From UHGV virus genome UHGV-1377030: 23,643 bases of DNA, one strand, 5' to 3'. The notes beneath the pieces are model-generated. The model worked only from the letters and a program-made list of their open reading frames with translations. It searched no databases and was not told the DNA's origin. A program made the translations under genes and the position numbers. Of this stretch, positions 2,767 through 14,518 are shown piece after piece; position 1 is the stretch's first letter; each line of letters starts with the position of its first letter. Source of the DNA: a virus.

Positions 2767-3042
2767 ATGTCGATGTACACAACCGCCCAGCTGCTGGCGG
2801 CAAATGAGCAGAAATTTAAGTTTGATCCGCTGTTTCTGCGTCTCTTTTTCCGTGAGAGCTATCCCTTCACCACGGAGAAAGTCTATCTCTCACAAATTCC
2901 GGGACTGGTAAACATGGCGCTGTACGTTTCGCCGATTGTTTCCGGTGAGGTTATCCGTTCCCGTGGCGGATCCACCTCTGAATTTACGCCGGGATATGTC
3001 AAACCCAAGCACTTAGCATGGCTTTCTGAGGCTTTCGTGTAG
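2767..3042 (+). pseudogene. E: Major capsid protein E, 5' fragment truncated by the island insertion
   Basis: MSMYTTAQLLAANEQKFKFDPLFLRLFFRESYPFTTEKVYLSQ...TPGYVKPKH matches the lambda gpE N-terminus up to about nt 3012; the frame then reads 10 unrelated codons (LAWLSEAFV) and stops at 3042. The rest of E resumes at 13730. Confidence 0.85.
3002..3011. repeat. Left copy of 10-bp direct repeat (putative attL core)
   Basis: aacccaagca; identical copy at 13728..13737. Lambda-homologous E sequence ends here. Confidence 0.55.
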
Positions 3043-3139
3043 TTGCTGGTTTTTACACTTAATCTTTTGATAATAAAGAATAAATTTATCTGGCGCTTTC
3101 ACTGAATTTTCCTCGTTATCTGTGTGTTGCAATCATCTC

Positions 3140-3160
3140 TGTATTGCAGCTTGTATTGCT
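3140..3160. repeat. Tandem direct repeat tgtattgcagc / tgtattgct (putative integrase arm-type sites, left end)
   Basis: tgtattgcagc (3140..3150) and tgtattgct (3152..3160); a near-identical pair occurs at 13632..13652 in the same orientation. Confidence 0.45.
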
Positions 3161-3174
3161 TTTTGGGGCTAAAA

Positions 3175-4410
3175 ATGGCTGGCGAGAACAAACTGAGCGA
3201 CAAAGCGCTTAAAGGATATCTGGGGAAACCCAGAGAAAAGCAGATCACCATTGCTGATGGAAAGGGGCTTTCTATTCGTGTGAGTACTAAAGGGGCTGTG
3301 AGCTTTGTTTTCTTCTACAGGTTAGCAGGTGGCCGGGCTGCTCCGGTCTGGCTAACGTTGGGTAAATATCCTGATATGTCACTCAAACAGGCAAGGGAAA
3401 AGCGCGACGAGTGCCGTGGTTGGTTGGCTGACAAACGTGATCCGCGTATCCAGATTAAGATTCAGGCTGAAGAACGCTTAAAGCCGGTCACAGTGGAGGA
3501 TGCACTAAATTACTGGTATGAAAATTACTGTAAGGTGCGTCGTAAAACTCATGCTGTAACGCTTGGCAGATTTCGAAAGCATATCTTTCCCTATATCGGT
3601 CATTTGCCCGTAAATGACACTCACCTATATGAATGGCTGGACTGTTTTGACCGAATTAAACGTAATGCACCAGTTATGGCGGCGTATGTTTTTTCTGACA
3701 CTAAATTAGCTCTTCGTTTTTGTCGGGTACGCCAGTACGCGACGTGTGATGCTTTAAAGGATTTGCGCATGAGTGATGTGGGGCAGATTGCAGGTAAGCG
3801 GGATCGGGTTCTGGATGAAGCCGAACTCGGCCAGCTCTGGAAGGCAATTTTTGTCGAGCCTGATTTAAAACTAATGTCTGAATACACGCGAAAAATGTTT
3901 GTGCTTTGTACAGTATTTGGATGTCGAATGAGTGAAGCCCGATTATCAGAATGGAGCGAATGGGATCTCGAAAGTTGGGTTTGGACTGTACCAAAAGATC
4001 ACTCAAAAACTGGTGTTGAAATCGTCAGACCAGTACCTGAAATTCTACGACAGTGGGTAACGGATGTTCACGAAGAGACAAAACATACTGGTTATGTGCT
4101 GGGAAGTCTGCGAATTAGAGAAAGCGTAAGCAAGATTGGGGGGAAAATCGGTAAACGTTTGGGCCATGAAAAACAATGGTCACTACACGACCTTAGAAGA
4201 ACGCTATCTACTCATCTAAGTGATCTCGGTGTTGAATTTTATGTAGTAGAACAACTGTTAGGCCATGCGCTACCTGGCGTGGCAGGTGTTTACAACCGGA
4301 GTAAGTTTATGGCTAAAAAACTGGATGCTCTGGAACTCTGGACTACATATCTCAATAGCATCGCAGGTGCTGATTCAAAAGTGACGATCCTCAAACAAAA
4401 GGTTGGTTAA
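3175..4410 (+). CDS. int: Tyrosine recombinase / integrase, P4-type (N-terminal arm-binding domain plus catalytic domain)
   Basis: ATG at 3175 (MAGENKLSDKALKGYLG...) in the 3124..4410 ORF. N-terminus resembles the P4-like integrase arm-binding domain (DGKGLSIRVSTKGAVSFVFFYRLAG...LGKYPDMSLKQAREKRDE); the C-terminus carries HDLRRT, LLGHA and a VYNRS tyrosine region typical of tyrosine recombinases. Start at 3124 is an alternative. Confidence 0.85.
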   Translation: MAGENKLSDKALKGYLGKPREKQITIADGKGLSIRVSTKGAVSFVFFYRLAGGRAAPVWLTLGKYPDMSLKQAREKRDECRGWLADKRDPRIQIKIQAEERLKPVTVEDALNYWYENYCKVRRKTHAVTLGRFRKHIFPYIGHLPVNDTHLYEWLDCFDRIKRNAPVMAAYVFSDTKLALRFCRVRQYATCDALKDLRMSDVGQIAGKRDRVLDEAELGQLWKAIFVEPDLKLMSEYTRKMFVLCTVFGCRMSEARLSEWSEWDLESWVWTVPKDHSKTGVEIVRPVPEILRQWVTDVHEETKHTGYVLGSLRIRESVSKIGGKIGKRLGHEKQWSLHDLRRTLSTHLSDLGVEFYVVEQLLGHALPGVAGVYNRSKFMAKKLDALELWTTYLNSIAGADSKVTILKQKVG

Positions 4411-4411
4411 C

Positions 4412-4639
4412 ATGAAAAAAATGGCAATTGTTGATAAAAAGGGTCTGGAGTACATTCCTAACATTGACCGAATGATCCGTGAGAAAGAATGTCGGGAGCT
4501 AACCACTCTTGCGAACAGCACACGCTGGAAGCTGGAGAAGGAAGGAAAATTTCCTAAGCGGATCAAGATTGGTTCCACTGCTGTTGCATATCGTCTTTCA
4601 GAAGTGCAGGCATGGATTCGAGGTGAGTGGGTAGTTTAA
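4412..4639 (+). CDS. alpA: AlpA-like phage transcriptional regulator / excisionase-like HTH protein
   Basis: MKKMAIVDKKGLEYIPNIDRMIREKECRELTTLANSTRWKLEKEGKFPKRIKIGSTAVAYRLSEVQAWIRG; short MerR/AlpA-type HTH protein immediately after int with tight spacing (int stop 4408..4410, ATG 4412). Confidence 0.75.
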   Translation: MKKMAIVDKKGLEYIPNIDRMIREKECRELTTLANSTRWKLEKEGKFPKRIKIGSTAVAYRLSEVQAWIRGEWVV

Positions 4640-4664
4640 ATTATCTCAGAATAAAATATTATGA

Positions 4665-4700
4665 ATTACTGATTTGAGAATTTGTACTCAAATCAGTAAT
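4665..4700. terminator. Perfect 14-bp inverted repeat hairpin between convergent genes (bidirectional terminator candidate)
   Basis: attactgatttgag (4665..4678) and ctcaaatcagtaat (4687..4700) with an 8-nt loop, in AT-rich context between the alpA stop and the stop of the minus-strand membrane protein gene. Confidence 0.5.
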
Positions 4701-4708
4701 AACATTCT

Positions 4709-5245
4709 TTATAAGAGATTAAATCCAAATAAAGAGTAATCATATACCGGGGTGCATTGCATTCCACTGAATATGCTGATGTTTTTTTCTGTTTCTATCC
4801 TTTTTTCAATAAGTTGTTGTATATTTTTACAGTACAATTTGTGTGTGATGTTATTATCGTAAGCCTGATATAGCAACGTCAATGTTGACGCTAGGAAACA
4901 TACAGATAAAATTAAAATAATATATGCAGTTTTTTTATTTTTTGTCCATGATCTATTTGTTTGTGAAATATAAAGAATTCTGAGGTGGATAATGGTGAGA
5001 GACAATAGCAGGCCACTCAATAAAATAAGTATTGGGTTTGCGTATTTTATTAATGGTTGAGAGCAAAAAACTATTATAGCTCCTGTGACTGCGTATGAGA
5101 AAAAGGAGTAATTAAACTTCTTACTCCTTCTCTCAAGTATTTTAATTTCATCTTGTGTGGGGGTTTTAGATGCCTCTAATATAAGTTTATTGAATGTTTC
5201 TGTTATCTTGTTTTTTGTGTTTGTGGCTATTTTTTTTAGATTCAT
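4709..5245 (-). CDS. Hypothetical membrane protein (about 3 predicted TM helices), AT-rich cargo gene
   Basis: 178-aa ORF with hydrophobic stretches (FFSYAVTGAIIVFCSQPLI, ILILLSGLLLSLTIIHLRILYI, AYIILILSVCFLASTLTLLY), a GGGAG-like SD upstream, and strongly AT-rich codon usage unlike its neighbours. No family recognised. Confidence 0.5.
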   Translation of the reverse strand: MNLKKIATNTKNKITETFNKLILEASKTPTQDEIKILERRSKKFNYSFFSYAVTGAIIVFCSQPLIKYANPILILLSGLLLSLTIIHLRILYISQTNRSWTKNKKTAYIILILSVCFLASTLTLLYQAYDNNITHKLYCKNIQQLIEKRIETEKNISIFSGMQCTPVYDYSLFGFNLL

Positions 5246-5559
5246 AGCATTCTAACTCCCTTAACTTATTTATTACTTTCTCTTTATGATAAGAGAGGGG
5301 AATGACTTGGTAAAGTGATTTGTCATTAATAATGATAATCCTTGCGATAAATATTTCTGCAAGTTATTTATCTGTTTGTTGCTATCTTGTTAAGCGTTGG
5401 GTGTGGTTTATATTTGGAGCGACTTTATTTAATCGTGATTTTATGGATTTATATTTATATCCTGTAAGATAAGCGCATGTTAGTTTAGGAGTAGTGTCAG
5501 ATAAAATTATTCGGAGTAGAACTACCTTTTCTGTTTATTGCCAGTATTTACATAGCAAT

Positions 5560-5586
5560 GCGCCGTAGTTACTCACATCACGGCGC
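5560..5586. terminator. Stem-loop downstream of the minus-strand regulator gene
   Basis: gcgccgt (5560..5566) pairs with acggcgc (5580..5586); lies just 3' of the stop of the 5596..5898 gene on its strand. Confidence 0.3.
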
Positions 5587-5595
5587 TGATACTAA

Positions 5596-5898
5596 TTATT
5601 CAGATTCTTTGGCTTTACGCCGCTGGAGTTCTTCACGAGCGACGGCTACGAGTTGCCCGATTTCCTCCGCTGCCTTGATGCCGATTTGTTCGACCTTAGC
5701 TAAGGCATCCAGTGAAGACACGAGGGGATTTTCTCCGCTTCCTTCTGCCTGGCGGCGGGCGATCTCACCGCGCATGGCGGTTACTATGAATCCGGCGTTG
5801 CTTTCGCCGTCCAGTTTTACGGATTCCATGCCCTCCATAACATCGTGGGGAACCCTGATCGTTGTCATTTGCGATTTTGCATTTTTGTATACAGACAT
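5596..5898 (-). CDS. Putative small transcriptional regulator (repressor-like; possible ribbon-helix-helix N-terminus)
   Basis: 100-aa ORF divergent from the replication operon. N-terminal MTTIRVPHDVMEGMES resembles the beta-strand of RHH (Arc/CopG-like) DNA-binding proteins. The start could instead be the internal Met at 5868. Confidence 0.45.
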   Translation of the reverse strand: MSVYKNAKSQMTTIRVPHDVMEGMESVKLDGESNAGFIVTAMRGEIARRQAEGSGENPLVSSLDALAKVEQIGIKAAEEIGQLVAVAREELQRRKAKESE

Positions 5899-5914
5899 AG
5901 TTAATCACCAATTT

Positions 5915-6025
5915 GTTATGTGTATATCACTATACACAAAAGTGAGATATAAAAACACTTGCAATGTATATCACCACAATATAATGTATATCTCACATTA
6001 TGGTCGCTATGTATCTCACAATGAT
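5915..6025. promoter_or_regulatory. Divergent promoter/operator region with four direct copies of TGTATAT(C)TCAC-like motif plus an inverted copy
   Basis: tgtatatcac (5921..5930), tgtatatcacc (5965..5975), tgtatatctcac (5985..5996), tgtatctcaca (6009..6020) and inverted gtgagatat (5942..5950), all within the 208-bp gap between divergent genes. Confidence 0.5.
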
Positions 6026-6106
6026 CGATTCATAAAAACGACGAAACCCGGCAGTGCGCGAACACTAACCGGGCTTCTAACCAAACCGTTAAACGAGGTA
6101 ACTATT

Positions 6107-6472
6107 ATGGCTGGAACACAGCATACCCAAACTCACCCTAAATTTATATACATCTTTCTGGCGCTACATCGCGATCGCATAGCAGATGGAGCAACTACGG
6201 TACATGTAGCCGCTGACACGCTGGTTGATGCCCGCAAGATGGTTAAGGAGATGGGCTATACTGCGGCTTTCTGGAAAGGGCGGGAAGAAAACACGCTGTT
6301 TATTCAGAAATGTGAAAACAATTTCCTCTGGCGTTTTATCGCCCTGAGTACGACACAACCGCGCGTGATTACCATCGAGGCCACCAGCGAACAGGAAGCC
6401 CGCCAGCAATCCCCAACTGGCTGCGTGATGATATTCGCCGCCCGTATTCGTCAGGAGGTGTGCCATGAATGA
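6107..6472 (+). CDS. Hypothetical protein (first gene of island early/replication operon)
   Basis: ATG at 6107 preceded by a GAGGT SD; the longer 5558..6472 ORF would run antisense through the regulator gene, so it is trimmed. No family recognised. Confidence 0.5.
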   Translation: MAGTQHTQTHPKFIYIFLALHRDRIADGATTVHVAADTLVDARKMVKEMGYTAAFWKGREENTLFIQKCENNFLWRFIALSTTQPRVITIEATSEQEARQQSPTGCVMIFAARIRQEVCHE

Positions 6473-6689
6473 TCTTTATTTTAAAGTGCTGACACATGCT
6501 GAAAACGCGCTCGTTTGTGGCAAAAATATGCGAGAAATCTTATCAACCTGGCTTGATGGGACAACAAATGCGGAACACGATGAACGGGATGCTAATTTAG
6601 CTGGAGCGTTAATTACGTTACTTGATCCTGTCATCAAAGAGCTGGATGAAGCTATAAAAATACACGATCAGAGCTATACCGAAGAATAA
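6465..6689 (+). CDS. Hypothetical protein
   Basis: 74-aa ORF; its ATG overlaps the upstream stop (ATGA coupling) and is preceded by an AGGAGG SD. Confidence 0.5.
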   Translation: MNDLYFKVLTHAENALVCGKNMREILSTWLDGTTNAEHDERDANLAGALITLLDPVIKELDEAIKIHDQSYTEE

Positions 6690-6691
6690 AA

Positions 6692-6979
6692 ATGAAAAAT
6701 AAATTTTCTGGCTTTATTGCTAGCGGTCAAGCTCATTCAAAAATCAGCCTTGGGGATATTTTCAAAGATAGCTATGGCTATCGGGTAAAGATTATTTCGG
6801 TTGATGATCGCCGTGTCCCTTATTTGCGTGATGGTTATGATTTTGAATGTGTTATGCCGCGTCAGCAGTTCGAAAGAGATTTCATTCTGGTAAAAAATTG
6901 CAAGACAGATAATCAGAGGCGTGCCGCAGGCTATATCCGCAAAATTCGGGCAATGTTAGTTGCCGGAGGTAATAAATGA
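6692..6979 (+). CDS. Hypothetical protein
   Basis: 95-aa ORF starting 3 nt after the previous stop; operon context. Confidence 0.45.
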   Translation: MKNKFSGFIASGQAHSKISLGDIFKDSYGYRVKIISVDDRRVPYLRDGYDFECVMPRQQFERDFILVKNCKTDNQRRAAGYIRKIRAMLVAGGNK

Positions 6980-7158
6980 AACGTGCTCCGAACTTAAAAT
7001 ACCAACCGCGCGACAAAATGACAGAAGTCATCATTTTTGCTGGCAGTGATGCCTAGAGCCATGCAAAAGAATGGAATGAATGGGCGGGTAAGCATATTGC
7101 AGCAGATGATACACCACCAGTAATTCTGGGTACGGAACAACTGGAAAACCTGGATGAT

Positions 7159-8796
7159 ATGCAAATTATCGATGAAGGCCGTCATTATGTGCGTGTTTAT
7201 CGTGCCGGAAAGATTGCAGAGAAAAATCTGACGAAGGTTGCGACATTACTTGCTATTGCAGGCGTAAAGGAAGCACGTTGTTACCGTAGCTTTGTTGATC
7301 GAGAGCCTGAAGACTGGACTCCGCGCCTTGTCGGCCTAAAAGCTGAAGCGGAGCATGGGGAAAGTCTGGTGATTGAACTGCCAGTGAAGAAGGCTGAGCG
7401 CAAAAATGACGAGCGTGCTTCATCTTTGGCGTTGAATCAGATGGGGGCCAGCCAGCGCGGTGAAGTTCTCCTTGCACATTACGGCGGCGAACTGGCAATC
7501 AATGCCGACTCTGACACCGTTCATCATTACAACGGCGTTGTATGGGAGCCGGTTCAGGATAAAGAGTTACAGCGTGCTATGGCGCAGATTTTCATTGATG
7601 CGGAGATCAGCTATTCGCAGAACGCTATTAAATCGGCGGTAGATACCATGAAGTTAAGTTTGCCTGTAATGGGGAATACAGCCCGTAACCTGATTGGATT
7701 CAGTAACGGGGTATTTGATACCAGAACTGGTAATTTTCGGGAGCATAACAAAAACGACTGGTTGTTAATTGCCAGTGAATTACCTTTCAGCCCACCAGCA
7801 GAGGGGGAAACGCTGGCAACACATGCGCCGAATTTCTGGAAGTGGTTGCGCCGTTCGGTGGCTGAGAATGACCGCAAGGCAGATCGCGTACTGGCGGCAT
7901 TATTCATGGTGCTGGCGAACCGGTACGACTGGCAGTTATTCATTGAGGTAACAGGGCCGGGGGGAAGTGGTAAAAGTGTGATGGCGGAGATTTGCACCAT
8001 GCTGGCGGGTAAGGCTAATACAGTATCAGCAAGCATGAAGGCGCTGGAAGATGCAAGGGAACGTGCGTTAGTGGTTGGCTTTTCGCTGATTATCATGCCG
8101 GATATGACCCGCTACGCTGGTGATGGGGCAGGGATTAAGGCCATTACAGGCGGTGACAAGGTGGCAATTGACCCGAAACACAAAGCCCCCTATTCAACGC
8201 GTATTCCGGCAGTAGTGCTGGCGGTTAACAATAACGCCATGTCATTCAGTGACCGCAGCGGGGGGATCTCACGTCGTCGGGTGATATTCAATTTTTCGGA
8301 AGTTGTACCGGAGAACGAACGCGATTCGATGCTGGCGGAAAAAATAGAAGGTGAGCTGGCGGTAGTGATTCGTCATCTGCTTACAAGGTTTGCTGATCAG
8401 GACGAAGCCAGACGCCTGTTATATGAGCAGCAGAAATCTGAAGAAGCACTGGCGATAAAGCGAGAGGGGGATTCGCTGGTGGACTTCTGCGGTTATCTCA
8501 TGGCATCGGTAATGTGTGATGGCCTGTTAGTGGGTAATGCTGAAATTGTGCCATTCAGCCCACGCAGGTATCTCTATCATGCCTATCTGGCTTATATGAG
8601 GGCACATGGGTTTGGTAAACCTGTAACACTGACGCGCTTCGGTAAAGATATGCCGGGGGCAATGGCGGAATATGGCAGGGAGTATATGAAACGGAAAACG
8701 AAGCACGGTTTGCGTTCAAACGTGACCCTGACGGAGGAATCAGAAGACTGGATGCCATCATGTGTATCGGTCACTAATGACGATAGCAAAAATTAA
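7159..8796 (+). CDS. Phage/plasmid primase-helicase, P4 alpha-like (D5 N-terminal-like region plus SF3 P-loop NTPase)
   Basis: Walker A GPGGSGKS in TGPGGSGKSVMAEICTMLAG, a downstream hydrophobic-acidic Walker B-like stretch (LVVGFSLIIMPDM), and overall resemblance to satellite/PICI primase-replicase proteins. Gene is followed directly by an iteron array. Confidence 0.8.
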   Translation: MQIIDEGRHYVRVYRAGKIAEKNLTKVATLLAIAGVKEARCYRSFVDREPEDWTPRLVGLKAEAEHGESLVIELPVKKAERKNDERASSLALNQMGASQRGEVLLAHYGGELAINADSDTVHHYNGVVWEPVQDKELQRAMAQIFIDAEISYSQNAIKSAVDTMKLSLPVMGNTARNLIGFSNGVFDTRTGNFREHNKNDWLLIASELPFSPPAEGETLATHAPNFWKWLRRSVAENDRKADRVLAALFMVLANRYDWQLFIEVTGPGGSGKSVMAEICTMLAGKANTVSASMKALEDARERALVVGFSLIIMPDMTRYAGDGAGIKAITGGDKVAIDPKHKAPYSTRIPAVVLAVNNNAMSFSDRSGGISRRRVIFNFSEVVPENERDSMLAEKIEGELAVVIRHLLTRFADQDEARRLLYEQQKSEEALAIKREGDSLVDFCGYLMASVMCDGLLVGNAEIVPFSPRRYLYHAYLAYMRAHGFGKPVTLTRFGKDMPGAMAEYGREYMKRKTKHGLRSNVTLTEESEDWMPSCVSVTNDDSKN

Positions 8797-8804
8797 ACTT
8801 ATGG

Positions 8805-9040
8805 AATAACTGTTCACCACTGTTCACCCTGTCATAAATATCTTTTATATCAGTATATTATAGGGTGAACAGTTATTTATGAACTGTTCACCAAACTATT
8901 CACTGTTCACCTTTTTGATTGTTTATTGAGCTTCAAGGGTGAACAGTGGTGAACAGTTGGTGAATAGTTTTTGTGAAACTGTTCACCCATTAACATTATG
9001 AATTAAAAGAGAAAATATCAAAAGGTGAACAGGTGAAGGG
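8805..9040. repeat. Iteron array, putative island replication origin
   Basis: About 10 copies of CTGTTCACC or its complement GGTGAACAG in both orientations: 8810..8818, 8820..8828, 8864..8872, 8884..8892, 8903..8911, 8938..8946, 8948..8956, 8959..8967 (degenerate), 8979..8987, 9024..9032, in AT-rich non-coding DNA just 3' of the helicase gene. Confidence 0.65.
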
Positions 9041-9083
9041 TTAAAACGCAAAAATTTTAATTTACTGCTGTGAGATAAAGCCT

Positions 9084-9329
9084 ATGACAGCGAAGCACAC
9101 AAAAAAATCACAATCGCACGCCCTTGATTTGACGGAACACTGGTTAAGGGTGTCGATAAAAATCATCGACCGCAACGCCGGGGAAGGATACGCGAAAGCA
9201 CATCCCGAACTGATTAGCGCATTCATGACAACGGCGGCTGCAAACTTTGCCACTCTGACCGAACGGGAGATTGCTGAAGCGGAGGAAGTGACAACAATCA
9301 ATATTAAGTCCGGAGAGCAGGCAGCATGA
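9084..9329 (+). CDS. Hypothetical protein
   Basis: 81-aa ORF; its stop overlaps the start of the next gene (ATGA). Weak SD. Confidence 0.4.
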   Translation: MTAKHTKKSQSHALDLTEHWLRVSIKIIDRNAGEGYAKAHPELISAFMTTAAANFATLTEREIAEAEEVTTINIKSGEQAA

Positions 9330-9775
9330 CGGCGCAAATATCAGTTTACGGGCGGTTGGTGGACGACCCGCAGACAAAACAGACCAGCAAGGGCACCCCC
9401 ATGACGCTGGCGCGTATGGCGGTATCACTGCCCTGCAGTCAGTCGGATGACGGTCAGGCGACGATGTGGTTATCTGTCCTGGCGTTTGGCAGACAAGCCG
9501 ACGCGCTGGCAAAGCATCACAAAGGCGAACTCCTGAGCGTGGCGGGTAATATGCAGGTGAGCCAGTGGACTGGACAGAACGGTGAAACGCGGCAGGGCTG
9601 GCAGGTTATCGCAGACAGCGTAATCAGTGCGCGAACGGTGCGACCGGGCGGCAAAAAAGGTCAACAGGGTCAGGCTACTGACGCACTGAACAGAGCAAAA
9701 CAACAGGCAGATCAGCAAGGAAGCCATCCACCAGTGGGAGATAATGAGCAATGGGGAGATGATATTCCGTTTTAA
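9326..9775 (+). CDS. Single-stranded DNA-binding protein-like (divergent SSB with acidic C-terminal tail)
   Basis: 149 aa ending in ...EQWGDDIPF, the characteristic SSB C-terminal tail (DDDIPF); a Gly/Gln-rich linker precedes it. Confidence 0.6.
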   Translation: MTAQISVYGRLVDDPQTKQTSKGTPMTLARMAVSLPCSQSDDGQATMWLSVLAFGRQADALAKHHKGELLSVAGNMQVSQWTGQNGETRQGWQVIADSVISARTVRPGGKKGQQGQATDALNRAKQQADQQGSHPPVGDNEQWGDDIPF

Positions 9776-9783
9776 ATATTGCC

Positions 9784-9808
9784 AATAAAAAAGGCCGGAA
9801 AAAAATAA
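9784..9808. other. Palindromic hairpin after the SSB-like gene
   Basis: gccggaaaa-aaataaa-ttttccggc perfect palindrome; terminator or operator, function unclear. Confidence 0.3.
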
Positions 9809-9992
9809 ATTTTCCGGCATGCTACATAAATCCCGACCAAAGGGAGTGAAGATATTAACACTAATTATCCGCGCTGGAGTTGTTATCCCAAAACTTTATA
9901 CAACATTGCACTCGGTTGCATGTATTCGCATGACAAATATCGGTGATAGCATATATCCACAATTATTTTTAATGAATGCAAAGAGGATGCGT

Positions 9993-11033
9993 ATGGTTGA
10001 TTTATATTCGCCTACCCAGCTTGTACAGGTGGTTAATGCTGTAGATGTACAAAAACAACTAAATGCGTTGTTTACCAGTTTGTTTTTTACTCGCTCGGTA
10101 ATGTTTGAATCGCGCGATATTATTCTTGATACAATCGACGATCCAAATATCCCAATTGCAGCGTTTTGTTCTCCTATGGTAGGTAGTAAAGTTTCACGTG
10201 ACGAAGGGTACGAATCAAAAACAATTCGTCCAGGCTATATGAAGCCGAAAAGCAGCATTGATCCAAATAAGTTAGCTGTGCGCCCTGCTGGTGTATCACC
10301 TGAGCAATACAATGCTTTTGGAGCGCGTAATATTAAAGTTAAACAGGCGATTGTAAATCAGGCTAAAGCTATTCGTGCACGTATTGAATGGTTTGCCGTT
10401 CAGGCAATCACAACGGGGAAAAATATCATTGAGGGCGATGGTATTGAACGTTATGAGCTGGACTGGAATATAAAACCACAAAATATCATCACTCAGTCTG
10501 GCGGTACTGAGTGGTCAGGTAAGGATAAAGAAACTTTTGATCCAAATGATGATATTGAGAGCTACGCAGAATTTAGTGAGGGCGTCACTAATATCATCAT
10601 TATGGGCGGTAATGTATGGAAGAAATACCGTTCATTCAGAGCGATAAAAGAGGCTCTGGATACCCGTCGTGGTTCTAATTCCGAACTGGAAACGGCCCTT
10701 AAAGACCTTGGTGATTCGGTGAGTTTTAAAGGGTATATGGGCGATGTTGCGATTGTTGTATACAGCGGGCGTTATACCGACGAGGACGGAACTGAAAAAC
10801 ATTTCCTTGATCCTGATTTGATGGTGCTTGGCAATACGGCTCTTCAGGGGATTGTCGCCTATGGCGGTATTCAGGATCCGGAGCTAATCCGAATGGGGCT
10901 GACTAAAGCCGAACTTGCACCGAAAAACTATATTGTGCCTGGTGATCCGGCTATTGAATATGTGCAGACACATTCAGCACCACAGCCAATACCGGCCCGC
11001 ATCAATCGTTTTGTTACCGTTCGCATTGGCTAA
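9993..11033 (+). CDS. Island-encoded major capsid protein homologue (lambda gpE-like, full length)
   Basis: ATG at 9993 with an AGAGGA SD 5 nt upstream. MVDLYSPTQLVQ... aligns with the gpE N-terminus, and the C-terminal half is clearly homologous (ITQSGGTEWS, LDTRRGSNSELETA, GDVAIVVYSG, MVLGNT, GDPA), visible even at nucleotide level. Confidence 0.85.
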   Translation: MVDLYSPTQLVQVVNAVDVQKQLNALFTSLFFTRSVMFESRDIILDTIDDPNIPIAAFCSPMVGSKVSRDEGYESKTIRPGYMKPKSSIDPNKLAVRPAGVSPEQYNAFGARNIKVKQAIVNQAKAIRARIEWFAVQAITTGKNIIEGDGIERYELDWNIKPQNIITQSGGTEWSGKDKETFDPNDDIESYAEFSEGVTNIIIMGGNVWKKYRSFRAIKEALDTRRGSNSELETALKDLGDSVSFKGYMGDVAIVVYSGRYTDEDGTEKHFLDPDLMVLGNTALQGIVAYGGIQDPELIRMGLTKAELAPKNYIVPGDPAIEYVQTHSAPQPIPARINRFVTVRIG

Positions 11034-11042
11034 GGGGGAGCA

Positions 11043-11384
11043 ATGGCTACTCATTACACTGAACTCATGGCTGGCACTGAAGCACTGGTGACTACGCTGG
11101 GGATATTTTCAGCTAATAAAGGGGTAATTCCTGCATTTACGCCACTGATGCAGGAAGATGCAACAGGTGCACTGGTGGTATGGGATGGTTCGAGCGTAGG
11201 TAAAGCGGTTTATGTTTCCGCTGTACAAATCGACACCGCGAAAAAAACACAGGCTCAGGTCTATAAGACAGGTGTCTTAAATGTTGATGCTCTGAACTGG
11301 CCTGAGTCTGTAAAAGAACTGTCAGTAAAGATTGCAGCGTTTGTTGGCTCAGGTATTTCTGTTCAGCCGCTGGCTCGTGTGTAA
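11043..11384 (+). CDS. Island-encoded head decoration protein homologue (lambda gpD-like)
   Basis: 113 aa with strong SD (AAGGGGGAG). TPLMQEDATGALVVWDGSSVGKAVYVSAVQ...FVGSGISV parallels gp[30 protein letters not shown]...FAGTAISIV; similar length. Confidence 0.7.
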   Translation: MATHYTELMAGTEALVTTLGIFSANKGVIPAFTPLMQEDATGALVVWDGSSVGKAVYVSAVQIDTAKKTQAQVYKTGVLNVDALNWPESVKELSVKIAAFVGSGISVQPLARV

Positions 11385-11395
11385 AGGGGGATACA

Positions 11396-11779
11396 ATGCA
11401 GAATGATTACAATGACCTTAAGCCACTTGCCGAAATGATGTACCCGAATCCAGCTGTAGAGGAATTAAAAGCTATCGCTGACAAAATGTGTTTAAGCGAG
11501 CGCCTTGTTGATATGAATCAGGTGATGGAAATTACAACCCTGAGTCGGCGTACACTGCTAAACCTTGAGGCTAGTGGAGAGTTCCCGGAGCGTGTGCAGG
11601 TTACGGAAGGGCGTAAGGCCTGGTATTTAAGTGAAGTGATCGACTGGATAAATAATATTCCTCGCGCTTCTGAATATTGCCGCGTACCTGTCCCAAAAAA
11701 GCCAGATGCGGCGCTATGCCTCAAGATTGAGCGTGTACGCCGCAATGCACGGGATGGTCGCTATAAGCTGATTGGTTGA
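11396..11779 (+). CDS. Small HTH DNA-binding protein (AlpA/MerR-like winged helix), candidate cos-binding or packaging-redirecting protein
   Basis: 127 aa with strong SD. Central segment MEITTLSRRTLLNLEASGEFPERVQVTEGRKAWYLSEVIDWINN has AlpA-like HTH architecture; gene sits directly upstream of the island cos site. Confidence 0.55.
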   Translation: MQNDYNDLKPLAEMMYPNPAVEELKAIADKMCLSERLVDMNQVMEITTLSRRTLLNLEASGEFPERVQVTEGRKAWYLSEVIDWINNIPRASEYCRVPVPKKPDAALCLKIERVRRNARDGRYKLIG

Positions 11780-11832
11780 TGAAATTAGGGCCCGCTCTGG
11801 CTGGCGGGTCCTTTCCGGCGATCTGACAGGCT

Positions 11833-12000
11833 ACGGGGCGTCAGGCGCGCAGTTTTTTGCTATTTGTGAAAATTTTCCTGTTTAAGGCGTTTCCGTTCTT
11901 CTTCGCCGTAACTTAATGTTTTTATTAAAAACACCCCCTAAAAAGAAAGGAAACGACAGGTGCTAAAAACAGGCTTTTTGGCCTCTGTCGTTTCCTTTCT
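11833..12000 (+). other. Lambda-type cos site carried by the island (cosN-like plus cosB R3, I1 region, R2, R1)
   Basis: Sequence from ctacggggcg... through gcgtttccgttcttcttcg (R3-like, 11888..11905), agaaaggaaacgacag (R2-like, 11944..11959) and ctgtcgtttcctttct (R1-like, 11985..12000) closely parallels the left end of lambda DNA as I recall it. The R-site region is near-identical; the cosN segment differs at several positions. Confidence 0.75.
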
Positions 12001-12345
12001 CTGGTTTTGTTGCCATCCGTCGCGGTCTATCACCAGAAAAAATCTTATCCCTGAGTTGAATCAGGCCCTATTCAGAAGCGGCCAATAACGCGCCGCTAGC
12101 TTCACTTCATAGTTATGGCCTACTTCTGCGCCATTGCAATTGCTTTATGCGCCTTGATGGTGGAATATAGAGCAAGCAGTTTGCGAATAACAAAGTTTCA
12201 TATGTTTTTTGCTGTGTGGCTAGACAACTTTACAGCAGAGTTTTGTGTCAGTTCTTTATGTGTGCAAGCAAGCTTGAGGGGGAATTACTTCTGGCTGCAT
12301 CTTTGCTTAAGAACAGCAATAATTTAATCATAAGGAAATGTATAT

Positions 12346-12368
12346 AAGCCTGATTAAATTTCAGGCTT
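12346..12368 (-). terminator. Hairpin immediately 3' of the TIR-domain gene
   Basis: aagcctga (12346..12353) pairs with tcaggctt (12361..12368) around a 7-nt loop, 10 nt beyond the gene stop, in AT-rich context. Confidence 0.4.
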
Positions 12369-12377
12369 ATTGAAATG

Positions 12378-13520
12378 TTAACTCCTTATTAGAGAGTAAA
12401 TTCCATCCTCTTTAAGGAAGTCTATTACTTCAAAGAATGAGATAAAGAATTCCCAAGAACCAAAAGCATATGCATGAATTTCGTAAGGTGCAAAATGGAA
12501 TCTAAATCCATCACTATTTATTGTGAACGAGTCTAAGTTACTATCCATGATACCCGTTGCAAACGTACTAATGTCGTCCTCACTTGGTTTTTCACCAGTT
12601 TTCTCCCAAAATTCACGAGCTGATTCAGAGATTATTTTTTGTTTTATCTTATTAATCGCTTCTTGCTCTTTCCCTTCGGTAAATACATCCCATAAACTAA
12701 ATTTGTATGCGTAGTCATCCTTGGTTATTACGAAATTACTAGTTTCAAAATGACTGTTAGGGTGTGCTGCTCCCGCACCATACCAATGTACGGAATGAAG
12801 GATGCTCATAACATTTTCGTTACAGTATGAGATGTTATAACTTTCATTATAGGAACTAGTGTAAGTGTGTTTATATTCTTCATCCCAATATGGTGTTCCT
12901 GGCCATAGTGATGTGCGTTCAGAAAAAATATGTAAAGCCGCTTTTCCTGAAAAGTAATCACTAATGAGTTTTGCTGATTTCGGTAATGTATGGCTTTCAA
13001 TTCTTGGATATGCTATTTCAATTTCATGCCCTGGGATCTTGTTATATTCTTCCTTGAAAACCTCGCTGCTAAAGTTAAATGGCCCATAAGTGATACCTTG
13101 AGATATTTCAAGTTTTTGTTGCGATGCTGCTAATCTTAAAGATCTAGATAAAATGTCCCAACCATCATTTCTCTTAAAATCAATGAATTGGAGCTTGCTT
13201 GATATGTAGGCGGGTACTTCGCAATCATCAATAAGTAATGGTATCACGAACACATCATCTGGTTTGTAATACTTTAGTTTATCAATGGCGTCATTTATTT
13301 CGCGGCGAATATAACCATTTTTCTGAGTGCTCACTTTGCTAAGGATAAGGATTATCAAGTTTGAATTAGCGAAGTTTTTTTGGATTTCATAATCCCAGTT
13401 TACGCCAGCGGGTATATCTTTTACATCCATCCAAGGGGAATATCCTCCACTTTTTAGCCTTTCATAGATTTCTTCAGTTATCGTTTCATCTTCTTTTGCA
13501 TGAGCAAGAAAAATTTTCAT
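12378..13520 (-). CDS. TIR-domain protein with uncharacterised ~240-aa C-terminal domain (candidate anti-phage defence cargo)
   Basis: 380-aa ORF with an AAGGAA SD 6 nt upstream. N-terminus MKIFLAHAKEDETITEEIYERLKSGGYSPWMDVKDIPAGVNW...LIILILSKVSTQKNGYIRREINDAI fits the bacterial TIR pattern (K-I/V-F-L/I-S/A-H/Y start, W at box 2, S-x-x-S...E catalytic-type segment). Strongly AT-rich relative to island and phage genes. Confidence 0.75.
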   Translation of the reverse strand: MKIFLAHAKEDETITEEIYERLKSGGYSPWMDVKDIPAGVNWDYEIQKNFANSNLIILILSKVSTQKNGYIRREINDAIDKLKYYKPDDVFVIPLLIDDCEVPAYISSKLQFIDFKRNDGWDILSRSLRLAASQQKLEISQGITYGPFNFSSEVFKEEYNKIPGHEIEIAYPRIESHTLPKSAKLISDYFSGKAALHIFSERTSLWPGTPYWDEEYKHTYTSSYNESYNISYCNENVMSILHSVHWYGAGAAHPNSHFETSNFVITKDDYAYKFSLWDVFTEGKEQEAINKIKQKIISESAREFWEKTGEKPSEDDISTFATGIMDSNLDSFTINSDGFRFHFAPYEIHAYAFGSWEFFISFFEVIDFLKEDGIYSLIRS

Positions 13521-13631
13521 TGAATATTCCTTTATAATTTAACTAATTAAGTGAAGGAGGCTTTACTTGGCTGTGTTAGAAAAAATTCGGTTTGTTTTTT
13601 GTACGATGCCAAGAAGGCTTTTCCCTAACCA

Positions 13632-13652
13632 TGTATTGCAGCATGTATTGCT
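13632..13652. repeat. Tandem direct repeat tgtattgcagc / tgtattgct (putative integrase arm-type sites, right end)
   Basis: tgtattgcagc (13632..13642) and tgtattgct (13644..13652), matching the pair at 3140..3160. Confidence 0.45.
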
Positions 13653-13727
13653 ACGTAATTCTGCACCCTCTCATTTATAAAATAAATCTCTGTTAAATCA
13701 AGTATCTTTTTTCTATTTGACTCATGT

Positions 13728-13737
13728 AACCCAAGCA
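13728..13737. repeat. Right copy of 10-bp direct repeat (putative attR core)
   Basis: aacccaagca; lambda E-homologous sequence resumes exactly here. Confidence 0.55.
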
Positions 13738-14518
13738 TGAGGTGAATCCGCAGATGACCCTGCGTCGCCTGCCGGATGAAGATCCGCAGAATCTGGCGGA
13801 CCCGGCTTACCGCCGCCGTCGCATCATCATGCAGAACATGCGTGACGAAGAGCTGGCCATTGCTCAGGTCGAAGAGATGCAGGCCGTTTCTGCCGTGCTT
13901 AAGGGCAAATACACCATGACCGGTGAAGCCTTCGATCCGGTTGAGGTGGATATGGGCCGCAGTGCGGCGAATAACATCACGCAGTCCGGCGGCACGGAGT
14001 GGAGCAAGCGTGACAAGTCCACGTATGACCCGACCGACGATATCGAAGCCTACGCGCTGAACGCCAGCGGTGTGGTGAATATCATCGTGTTTGATCCGAA
14101 AGGCTGGGCGCTGTTCCGTTCCTTCAAAGCCGTCAAGGAGAAGCTGGATACCCGTCGTGGCTCTAATTCCGAGCTGGAGACAGCGGTGAAAGACCTGGGT
14201 AAAGCGGTGTCCTATAAGGGGATGTATGGCGATGTTGCCATCGTCGTGTATTCCGGACAGTACGTGGAAAACGGCGTCAAAAAGAACTTCCTGCCGGACA
14301 ACACGATGGTGCTGGGGAACACTCAGGCACGCGGTCTGCGTACCTATGGCTGTATTCAGGATGCGGACGCACAGCGCGAAGGCATTAACGCCTCTGCCCG
14401 TTACCCGAAAAACTGGGTGACCACCGGCGATCCGGCGCGTGAGTTCACCATGATTCAGTCAGCACCGCTGATGCTGCTGGCTGACCCTGATGAGTTCGTG
14501 TCCGTACAACTGGCGTAA
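13730..14518 (+). pseudogene. E: Major capsid protein E, 3' fragment (continuation of the gene interrupted at about 3012)
   Basis: PKHEVNPQMTLRRLPDEDPQNLADPAYRRRR...DEFVSVQLA matches lambda gpE from about residue 80 to the C-terminus. An in-frame TAA at 13727..13729 precedes it, so the fragment lacks its N-terminal part. Confidence 0.85.

Follow-up and report, generated by a model that had tools for sequence, protein, structure and literature searches.

A small phage-type repressor acting on an operator array over divergent promoters is a familiar kind of system. The P22 repressor Mnt has a DNA-reading domain followed by a long C-terminal helix, ribbon-helix-helix dimers of the omega (pSM19035)/CopG type bind arrays of short asymmetric repeats, in mixed orientation, over promoters, and Stl and Rpr, of SaPIs and Gram-positive PICIs, are larger helix-turn-helix proteins. 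Among Gram-negative PICIs, induction has a single published route, through the activator AlpA, and the matter of a global repressor was called 'unclear' (PMC6092414). Helper-embedded islands of this group at the capsid-E site, Eco567.11capE among them, are described by Mageeney et al. 2023 (PMC10111431), whose account deals with their integration, Bro, replication and late zones; immunity RNAs of the C4/CI type are mentioned as well.

The window, by which we mean the whole 23,643-bp stretch of DNA that was analysed, is an exact match to part of the chromosome of E. coli AR_0013. It carries a satellite island of ~10.6 kb (~3050-13700) that lies inside the lambda-E-like major capsid gene of a lambdoid prophage, with the two halves of that gene (2767-3012 and ~13730-14518, RefSeq annotation) flanking it. 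The gene content recognized by Pfam and NCBIfam comprises a tyrosine integrase, AlpA (4403-4639), a divergent regulator, a P4/D5-type primase and SSB. The island also encodes a second AlpA-like gene, a TIR-domain protein, its own capsid E-like gene (about 9994-11033) and its own decoration gene (11043-11384). Because it combines int and alpA, a P4/D5-type primase, iterons past the primase, small size and insertion in a capsid gene, the island belongs, judged by its genes and its place, to a class already known, the helper-embedded Gram-negative PICIs of the capsid-E site. The TIR-domain protein (380 aa, 12378-13520, minus strand) stands at the far end of the island on the opposite strand and is a candidate anti-phage defence cargo. 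The model PICI EcCICFT073 was not located within the 1.395-1.480 Mb of the CFT073 genome that was covered, where the icd prophage alone was found.

The rightward operon of the island runs from an Icd-like gene through two small ORFs and DUF4222 to the P4/D5-type primase. Its first gene (6107..6472, plus strand) encodes an Icd-like protein of 121 aa, recognized by NCBIfam NF033153 with 80.5 bits and named in the same way by RefSeq. The primase reading frame (6976-8796) is interrupted by an in-frame stop at codon 27 (7054-7056) and is a pseudogene in RefSeq; an ORF of 545 aa restarts at 7159, downstream of the stop. Because the primase gene carries this stop, the replication module of this particular copy may be defective, and autonomous replication may be lost with it. 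On the other side of the gap, a 178-aa multi-pass membrane protein (4709-5245, minus strand) is encoded between the regulator and alpA. Many relatives have an AntA/AntB or Bro-N family gene there instead (loci L002, L003, L008, L129, L132-L135 and L137-L139), and these neighbours offer, as a lead, a possible antirepressor route to induction.

The minus-strand reading frame of the regulator (5596-5898) and the plus-strand frame starting at 6107 are separated by 208 bp (5899-6106). An earlier note on this DNA had placed four direct copies and one inverted copy of a repeat in a 208-bp gap between a putative regulator and a replication operon; its count is borne out, the gap is as long as was said, and the operon had been correctly described. 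As 10-mers, all five sites are exact instances of TRTATMTCAC, beginning at 5921(+), 5942(-), 5965(+), 5987(+) and 6010(+). Site O1, TGTATATCAC (5921..5930, plus strand), overlaps the -10 and the start of the presumed leftward promoter, and the inverted site O2, GTGAGATATA, which is TATATCTCAC on the minus strand (5942..5951), lies in the spacer of that promoter. Site O3, also TGTATATCAC (5965..5974, plus strand), directly abuts the rightward -35 within the promoter spacer, and site O4, TATATCTCAC (5987..5996, plus strand), given in the earlier note as the longer copy TGTATATCTCAC (5985-5996), overlaps the rightward -10 and transcription start. Site O5, TGTATCTCAC (6010..6019, plus strand), falls in the leader at about +16 to +25 and is the least conserved of the five. 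The centre-to-centre spacings, which the earlier note did not give, are 21, 23, 22 and 23 bp, or about two helical turns.

Outside the five sites, TRTATMTCAC has no match in the 23,643-bp window, and the comparison of five copies with the 0.11 expected is partly circular because the consensus was derived from the same sites. An unbiased count was therefore made of 10-mers repeated with at most one mismatch on either strand, in the gap and in 300 shuffled versions of it with the dinucleotide content preserved. The top-repeated 10-mer of the gap has five non-overlapping copies, and the maximum reached in the shuffles was three.

The rightward promoter has its -35, TTGCAA, at 5959..5964 (plus strand); the corresponding element is TTGAC in most relatives, and its position is kept in all types. 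Its -10 falls at 5980..5987 (plus strand) and can be read either as TATAAT (5980-5985) after a 15-nt spacer or as TAATGT (5982-5987) after a 17-nt spacer, the latter being the spacing found in relatives by manual sequence comparison. When promoters were scored by a custom log-odds scan against the sigma-70 consensus, the rightward promoter received the best plus-strand score in 5860-6160 (11.3, at least at the 95th percentile of the window background); at the stringency of a standard promoter/terminator scan, no promoter was called in the gap. On the other strand, TATAGT (5929..5934) is invariant in the alignment of loci of the window's type and belongs to a TATACA(C)AAAA block that is kept with small variations in most specificity types. 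We infer a leftward promoter for the regulator with this TATAGT as its -10, and treat it as presumed because its sigma-70 consensus score is weak and its -35 poor, which counts against the operator reading. The -10 of the rightward promoter, the one with the best score, has O3 and O4 on its two sides, and the conserved TATAGT has O1 and O2, so that the repeated sites overlap core elements of both promoters, the leftward one being presumed.

The comparison across relatives drew on ~140 loci that encode relatives of the regulator and have 11 variants of its putative reading segment. They were collected from complete E. coli genomes, GTDB representative genomes, metagenomes, IMG/VR and exact-protein look-ups, with six loci from the GTDB representatives and most from IMG/VR, metagenomes and the look-ups, and they come from E. 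coli, Enterobacter, Yersinia, Klebsiella, Serratia, Xenorhabdus and Photorhabdus. In all of the ~140 loci the regulator is divergent from an operon leading to DUF4222 and a primase. The layout of the gap is constant as well: a site, the TATACA(C)AAAA block, a second site, an A-tract, the TTGAC -35, a third site, ~17 nt ending in a TAnnnT -10, a fourth and in some cases a fifth site, a GC hairpin and TCTAACC. The offsets of the sites from the regulator start codon are fixed at about 23, 44, 67, 89 and 112.

The earlier note would have given up its reading if the repeats were not conserved in related islands, and on this check the sites proved to be conserved. In an alignment of eight copies of the window's type, from E. 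coli, Enterobacter ludwigii and Yersinia enterocolitica, the sites are kept and the flanks drift; 34 of 50 positions within sites are invariant as against 19 of 68 outside them (Fisher p=3e-5), and within O1, 8 of the 10 positions are the same in all copies from these three genera. In the LTTVR type, copies from Xenorhabdus and Photorhabdus likewise keep TGTGTTTCA/TGAAACACA while the intervening spacer changes. The orientation +-+++ of the window's type is kept from E. coli to Yersinia, and that of the LTTVR type (L005/L024) is +-+--; such variation in site orientation between specificity types is a point against the operator reading.

Within one locus, all sites switch jointly to a new sequence, and each site sequence pairs with one variant of residues 11-14 of the regulator. 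No exception was seen in the ~140 loci, which correspond to ~10 independent co-variation events because a few closely related E. coli lineages dominate the sample. Giving residues 11-15 in each case, MTT[ILV]R accompanies the site TGTAYMTCAC, LTTVR and LFTVR accompany TGTGTTTCA, SLTAR accompanies TGTAAGACA, QISIR TGTGATTCA, MKNIR TGTRTAYACA, QLNAR GGTATTCAC, MISTR GTGTAGKCA, IKNVR GTGTGYATTCA and ALAAR GTGTTTACA. When every motif was matched against the gaps of every type, the well-sampled types had 4-7 matches per gap to their own motif and 0-1 to most foreign motifs; LTTVR and QISIR, with motifs one base apart, form the main exception and cross-match 2-3 times. Types represented by one to four loci had just 1-3 matches to the reference 10-mer chosen for each. 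A skeleton TG-N5-CA, with palindromic ends and an asymmetric centre, is common to all site types. It would suit a symmetric dimer whose invariant R15 contacts the two ends while its variable residues contact the centre.

The regulator (5596..5898, minus strand, 100 aa) is a member of the YlcI/YnfO family and bears the same name in RefSeq. Its N-terminal domain of 42 residues (residues 8-49, profile positions 1-42) matches NCBIfam NF041551 with 70.5 bits against a curated cutoff of 30 (E=8.5e-20). PHROG 6522, the family to which it belongs, is labelled 'unknown function', and neither a Pfam match at threshold nor a helix-turn-helix match was found for the protein. An AlphaFold model of the monomer, built with 31 homologues (pLDDT 81), has an extended N-terminus followed by helices at residues 18-27, 34-54 and 58-99, and has no strand at residues 11-17. 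A Foldseek search of this model against PDB and BFVD gave nothing significant. Searches of the PDB with the full-length protein, with the N-terminal 53 aa and with a 31-sequence profile returned nothing meaningful except a weak match to Hef. This helix-hairpin-helix-like match (1x2i, E=0.01, residues 45-86) was rejected, AlphaFold drawing a single long helix there instead.

Several weak indications point to a ribbon-helix-helix fold, which is plausible for the regulator and not established. In an hhalign comparison with P22 Arc, KSQMTTIRVPHDV of the regulator is aligned with the DNA-reading strand of Arc, KMPQFNLRWPREV, so that RVP of the regulator is paired with RWP of Arc (E=0.007, at a probability of just 5%); the corresponding comparison with Mnt aligned 11 columns (E=0.14) and gave nothing useful. 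PF07704, which we take to be an antitoxin family of the ribbon-helix-helix clan, gives weak matches, all below the cutoff, in 24 of 31 members of the regulator family, and some sources name homologues 'Arc-like DNA binding domain'. Residues 11-14 are MTTI in the window's regulator and stand just before the invariant R15-x-P17. Variation in the family is concentrated at these four residues, the remainder being ~90% identical across specificity types, and we presume that they form a DNA-reading segment of the Arc-like pattern "xxxxRxP". That DNA specificity lies in residues of this N-terminal segment is indicated by comparative evidence, from the ~140 loci. The C-terminal half (residues 50-100, window 5596-5750) is likewise ~90% identical across all specificity types and could serve in oligomerization or as a site for a partner.

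Taken together, conserved sites that stand on promoter elements and co-vary with a segment of the regulator lend the operator reading of the earlier note strong support. Its proposal of a repressor-controlled switch governing island replication is the best reading, in which binding by the protein and the sign of its effect are the parts that we infer. The note's further suggestion, that helper induction is sensed at this point, is a bare possibility. We think it probable that the regulator, filling sites on one face of the helix cooperatively, represses the operon from the Icd-like gene to the primase and autoregulates its own gene. The five TRTATMTCAC repeats would be operator subsites of the divergently encoded YlcI/YnfO-family protein (5596-5898), which would read the DNA with its N-terminal Arc-like segment, variable at residues 11-14 and invariant at R15, probably as a ribbon-helix-helix dimer. 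A candidate for joining dimers is the long conserved C-terminal helix of the protein, and dimers or dimers of dimers would fill the sites, ~22 bp apart, cooperatively. O3 and O4 would bracket the -10 of the rightward operon (Icd-like gene, two small ORFs, DUF4222 and primase) with O5 just downstream, and O1 and O2 would bracket the -10 of the regulator's own promoter. Since sites bracket both -10 elements, their occupancy should shut off the replication operon and autoregulate the regulator. Islands carrying different matched pairs of segment and site may then behave like immunity types with interchangeable specificities, and the conservation of the C-terminal half argues for an induction signal, common to all types, by which repression would be lifted.

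A pertinent question is whether the YlcI-like protein is the one that occupies the sites. Another island or helper protein, such as AlpA, a Cro-like rightward product or the Icd-like protein, could bind them, with the YlcI-like N-terminus co-varying by adjacency. The co-varying codons and the sites do lie within ~120 bp, and the C-terminal domain of the Icd-like protein matches PHROG families annotated as transcriptional repressor. We nevertheless regard this as unlikely, since the first downstream gene and the leader hairpin, equally close to the sites, reassort freely against operator type. Within one operator type there are 4-6 leader hairpin variants and 3-5 types of first downstream gene; the hairpin is 27 bp from O5, whereas the codons of the reading segment, at least 53 bp from O1, never reassort, so that linkage alone is no explanation. 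AlpA genes, moreover, are >1 kb away and differ among islands that share one operator type, and the variation of the YlcI-like protein is confined to the segment that aligns with a known DNA-reading strand.

If the YlcI-like protein does bind the sites, it might still be an activator of the rightward promoter or an architectural factor for it. AlpA, the regulator known from Gram-negative PICIs, acts by activation (PMC6092414), and the 15-nt spacing between TTGCAA and TATAAT is suboptimal and could call for a helper factor. Sites that lie, as these do, within the spacer, on the -10 and start point, and farther downstream are, however, typical of repressors, activators normally binding upstream of or at the -35, and the bracket arrangement recurs on the regulator's own promoter. 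Activation is accordingly a decidedly unlikely alternative to repression.

It is very improbable that the repeats are replication-origin iterons or binding sites for the primase or another initiator, as their short, regularly spaced direct copies, the AT-rich gap and the adjacent replication genes might suggest. The 5921-6019 motif occurs nowhere else in the window, and a different iteron forms a separate dense array (8805-9035) directly past the primase, with ~11 copies of ACTGTTCACC / GGTGAACAGT around AT-rich stretches; the iteron reading of the gap was rejected on these grounds. Gram-negative PICI origins have been mapped downstream of the primase (PMC6092414, PMC10111431), and the array at 8805-9035, not the 208-bp gap, is likely to be the replication origin of the island. 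The primase type, moreover, varies among loci (D5/P4-type, DUF927, RepA-like), and the DUF927 type accompanies several operator types. Chance, acting in AT-rich promoter DNA of low complexity, is a scarcely credible source of the repeats, for although A and T predominate in the gap and TATA-like words abound in it, even four copies were reached in 0 of 300 local dinucleotide shuffles and the sites are kept across genera while their flanks diverge.

Beside the proposed operators, the Rfam SymR model, the predicted fold and covariation point to a putative cis-antisense RNA of ~78 nt (6035..6112, minus strand) that lies across the beginning of the Icd-like gene, over its ribosome-binding site and start codon, and probably masks both. 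The full SymR model (RF01809) matches 6040-6112 on the minus strand with 35.3 bits (E=4e-5 in a 401-nt search); because this is below the gathering score of 61, the RNA is not, by the Rfam criterion, a member of the SymR family. A SymR match at the equivalent place in a Xenorhabdus island (L009), at 38.7 bits, is also sub-threshold. The minus-strand RNA folds into a 5' hairpin and a GC-rich terminator hairpin (6043-6077) followed by the U-tract UUUCGUCGUUUUU (z=-3.5), and among 23 distinct relatives 22 consensus pairs are predicted, 8 of them with compensatory changes. G-U pairs are frequent among them, and because such a pair would turn into an A-C mismatch in a plus-strand RNA, the structure is that of a minus-strand transcript. 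TATGCT (6120..6125, minus strand), 7 nt upstream of the 5' AGCC, is the presumed -10 of the promoter of this RNA, and the TAnnnT box is kept at the 7-nt distance inside three unrelated downstream coding sequences.

At gathering thresholds there is no Rfam match in the window, and no C4/CI-type immunity RNA was found there; two related islands have such an RNA. Some relatives have a C4 antisense RNA with a1/b1 targets (P1/P4-type) in the rightward operon, and an int-alpA RNA as well (L005 3766-3970; L136 699-786; L003 257-324). Given this varied RNA content, related islands would seem to combine a protein switch with different RNA locks.

A broader proposal is possible, and we put it forward tentatively: the master repressor so far missing from a large clade of Gram-negative PICIs may be a YlcI/YnfO protein, modular in specificity and with the SymR-like RNA as a second lock. 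In such a modular arrangement, the four-residue segment and the five-site array would be exchanged as a unit, so that some ten or more immunity groups arise; one inducing signal, common to them all, would act on the conserved C-terminal half, and the SymR-like cis-antisense RNA would add its lock on the first gene of the replication operon. The 1.1-kb stretch from the regulator through the gap to the Icd-like gene has matches in 811 of 5,426 complete E. coli genomes, 38 of which cover at least 80% of it, and relatives of the regulator are found in six genera besides that of E. coli. A literature search found no paper describing the regulator, its operators or the antisense RNA. A satellite group without a described repressor thus gains a concrete candidate, a protein and five sites defined to the base, and if the reading is true, a role can be assigned to the uncharacterized YlcI/YnfO proteins (PHROG 6522). 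The pairing of four residues with the four central base pairs of a TG-N5-CA site would amount to a natural specificity code, which could be reused as orthogonal repressor/operator pairs.

Among described islands, the one in the window resembles Eco567.11capE in its integrase, AlpA, primase, SSB and own capsid E-like and decoration genes, and in its insertion in the lambda-E-like capsid gene of a lambdoid prophage (PMC10111431); a YlcI-like regulator, its operators and a SymR-like RNA were not found described in the passages of that paper that were searched. The antisense RNA is like SymR of the SymE/SymR pair in being a two-hairpin RNA (~77 nt in SymR) antisense to the ribosome-binding site and start codon of its neighbour, and unlike it in that the target is the Icd-like gene and not symE. 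With Stl of SaPIs and Rpr of Gram-positive PICIs, the regulator shares a position divergent from the primase/replication operon of a satellite (PMC6092414) and a proposed role in island quiescence, a likeness that rests on gene layout. It differs from them in its size of 100 aa and in the lack of a helix-turn-helix match or of a Pfam match at threshold. Stl proteins, furthermore, diverge to sense different helper proteins, whereas the part of the window's family that does not read DNA is ~90% conserved.

The closest parallels in the proposed manner of DNA recognition are with the small repressors. The +-+++ and +-+-- site patterns are like those of omega/CopG-type proteins, although the omega sites are contiguous heptads and those of the window are 10-bp sites 21-23 bp apart, and homology is not part of this likeness. 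The similarity to Arc and Mnt of P22 is marginal, and each of these has one operator with half-sites about one turn apart, unlike the five subsites ~22 bp apart over two back-to-back promoters in the window. As in the P22 proteins, however, a small protein presents an N-terminal 'xxxxRxP', here aligned with the DNA-reading strand of Arc, and the operator subsites overlap promoter elements. The order of a reading domain and then a long C-terminal helix, the latter drawn by AlphaFold for the regulator, is also that of Mnt, and such a helix could join dimers.
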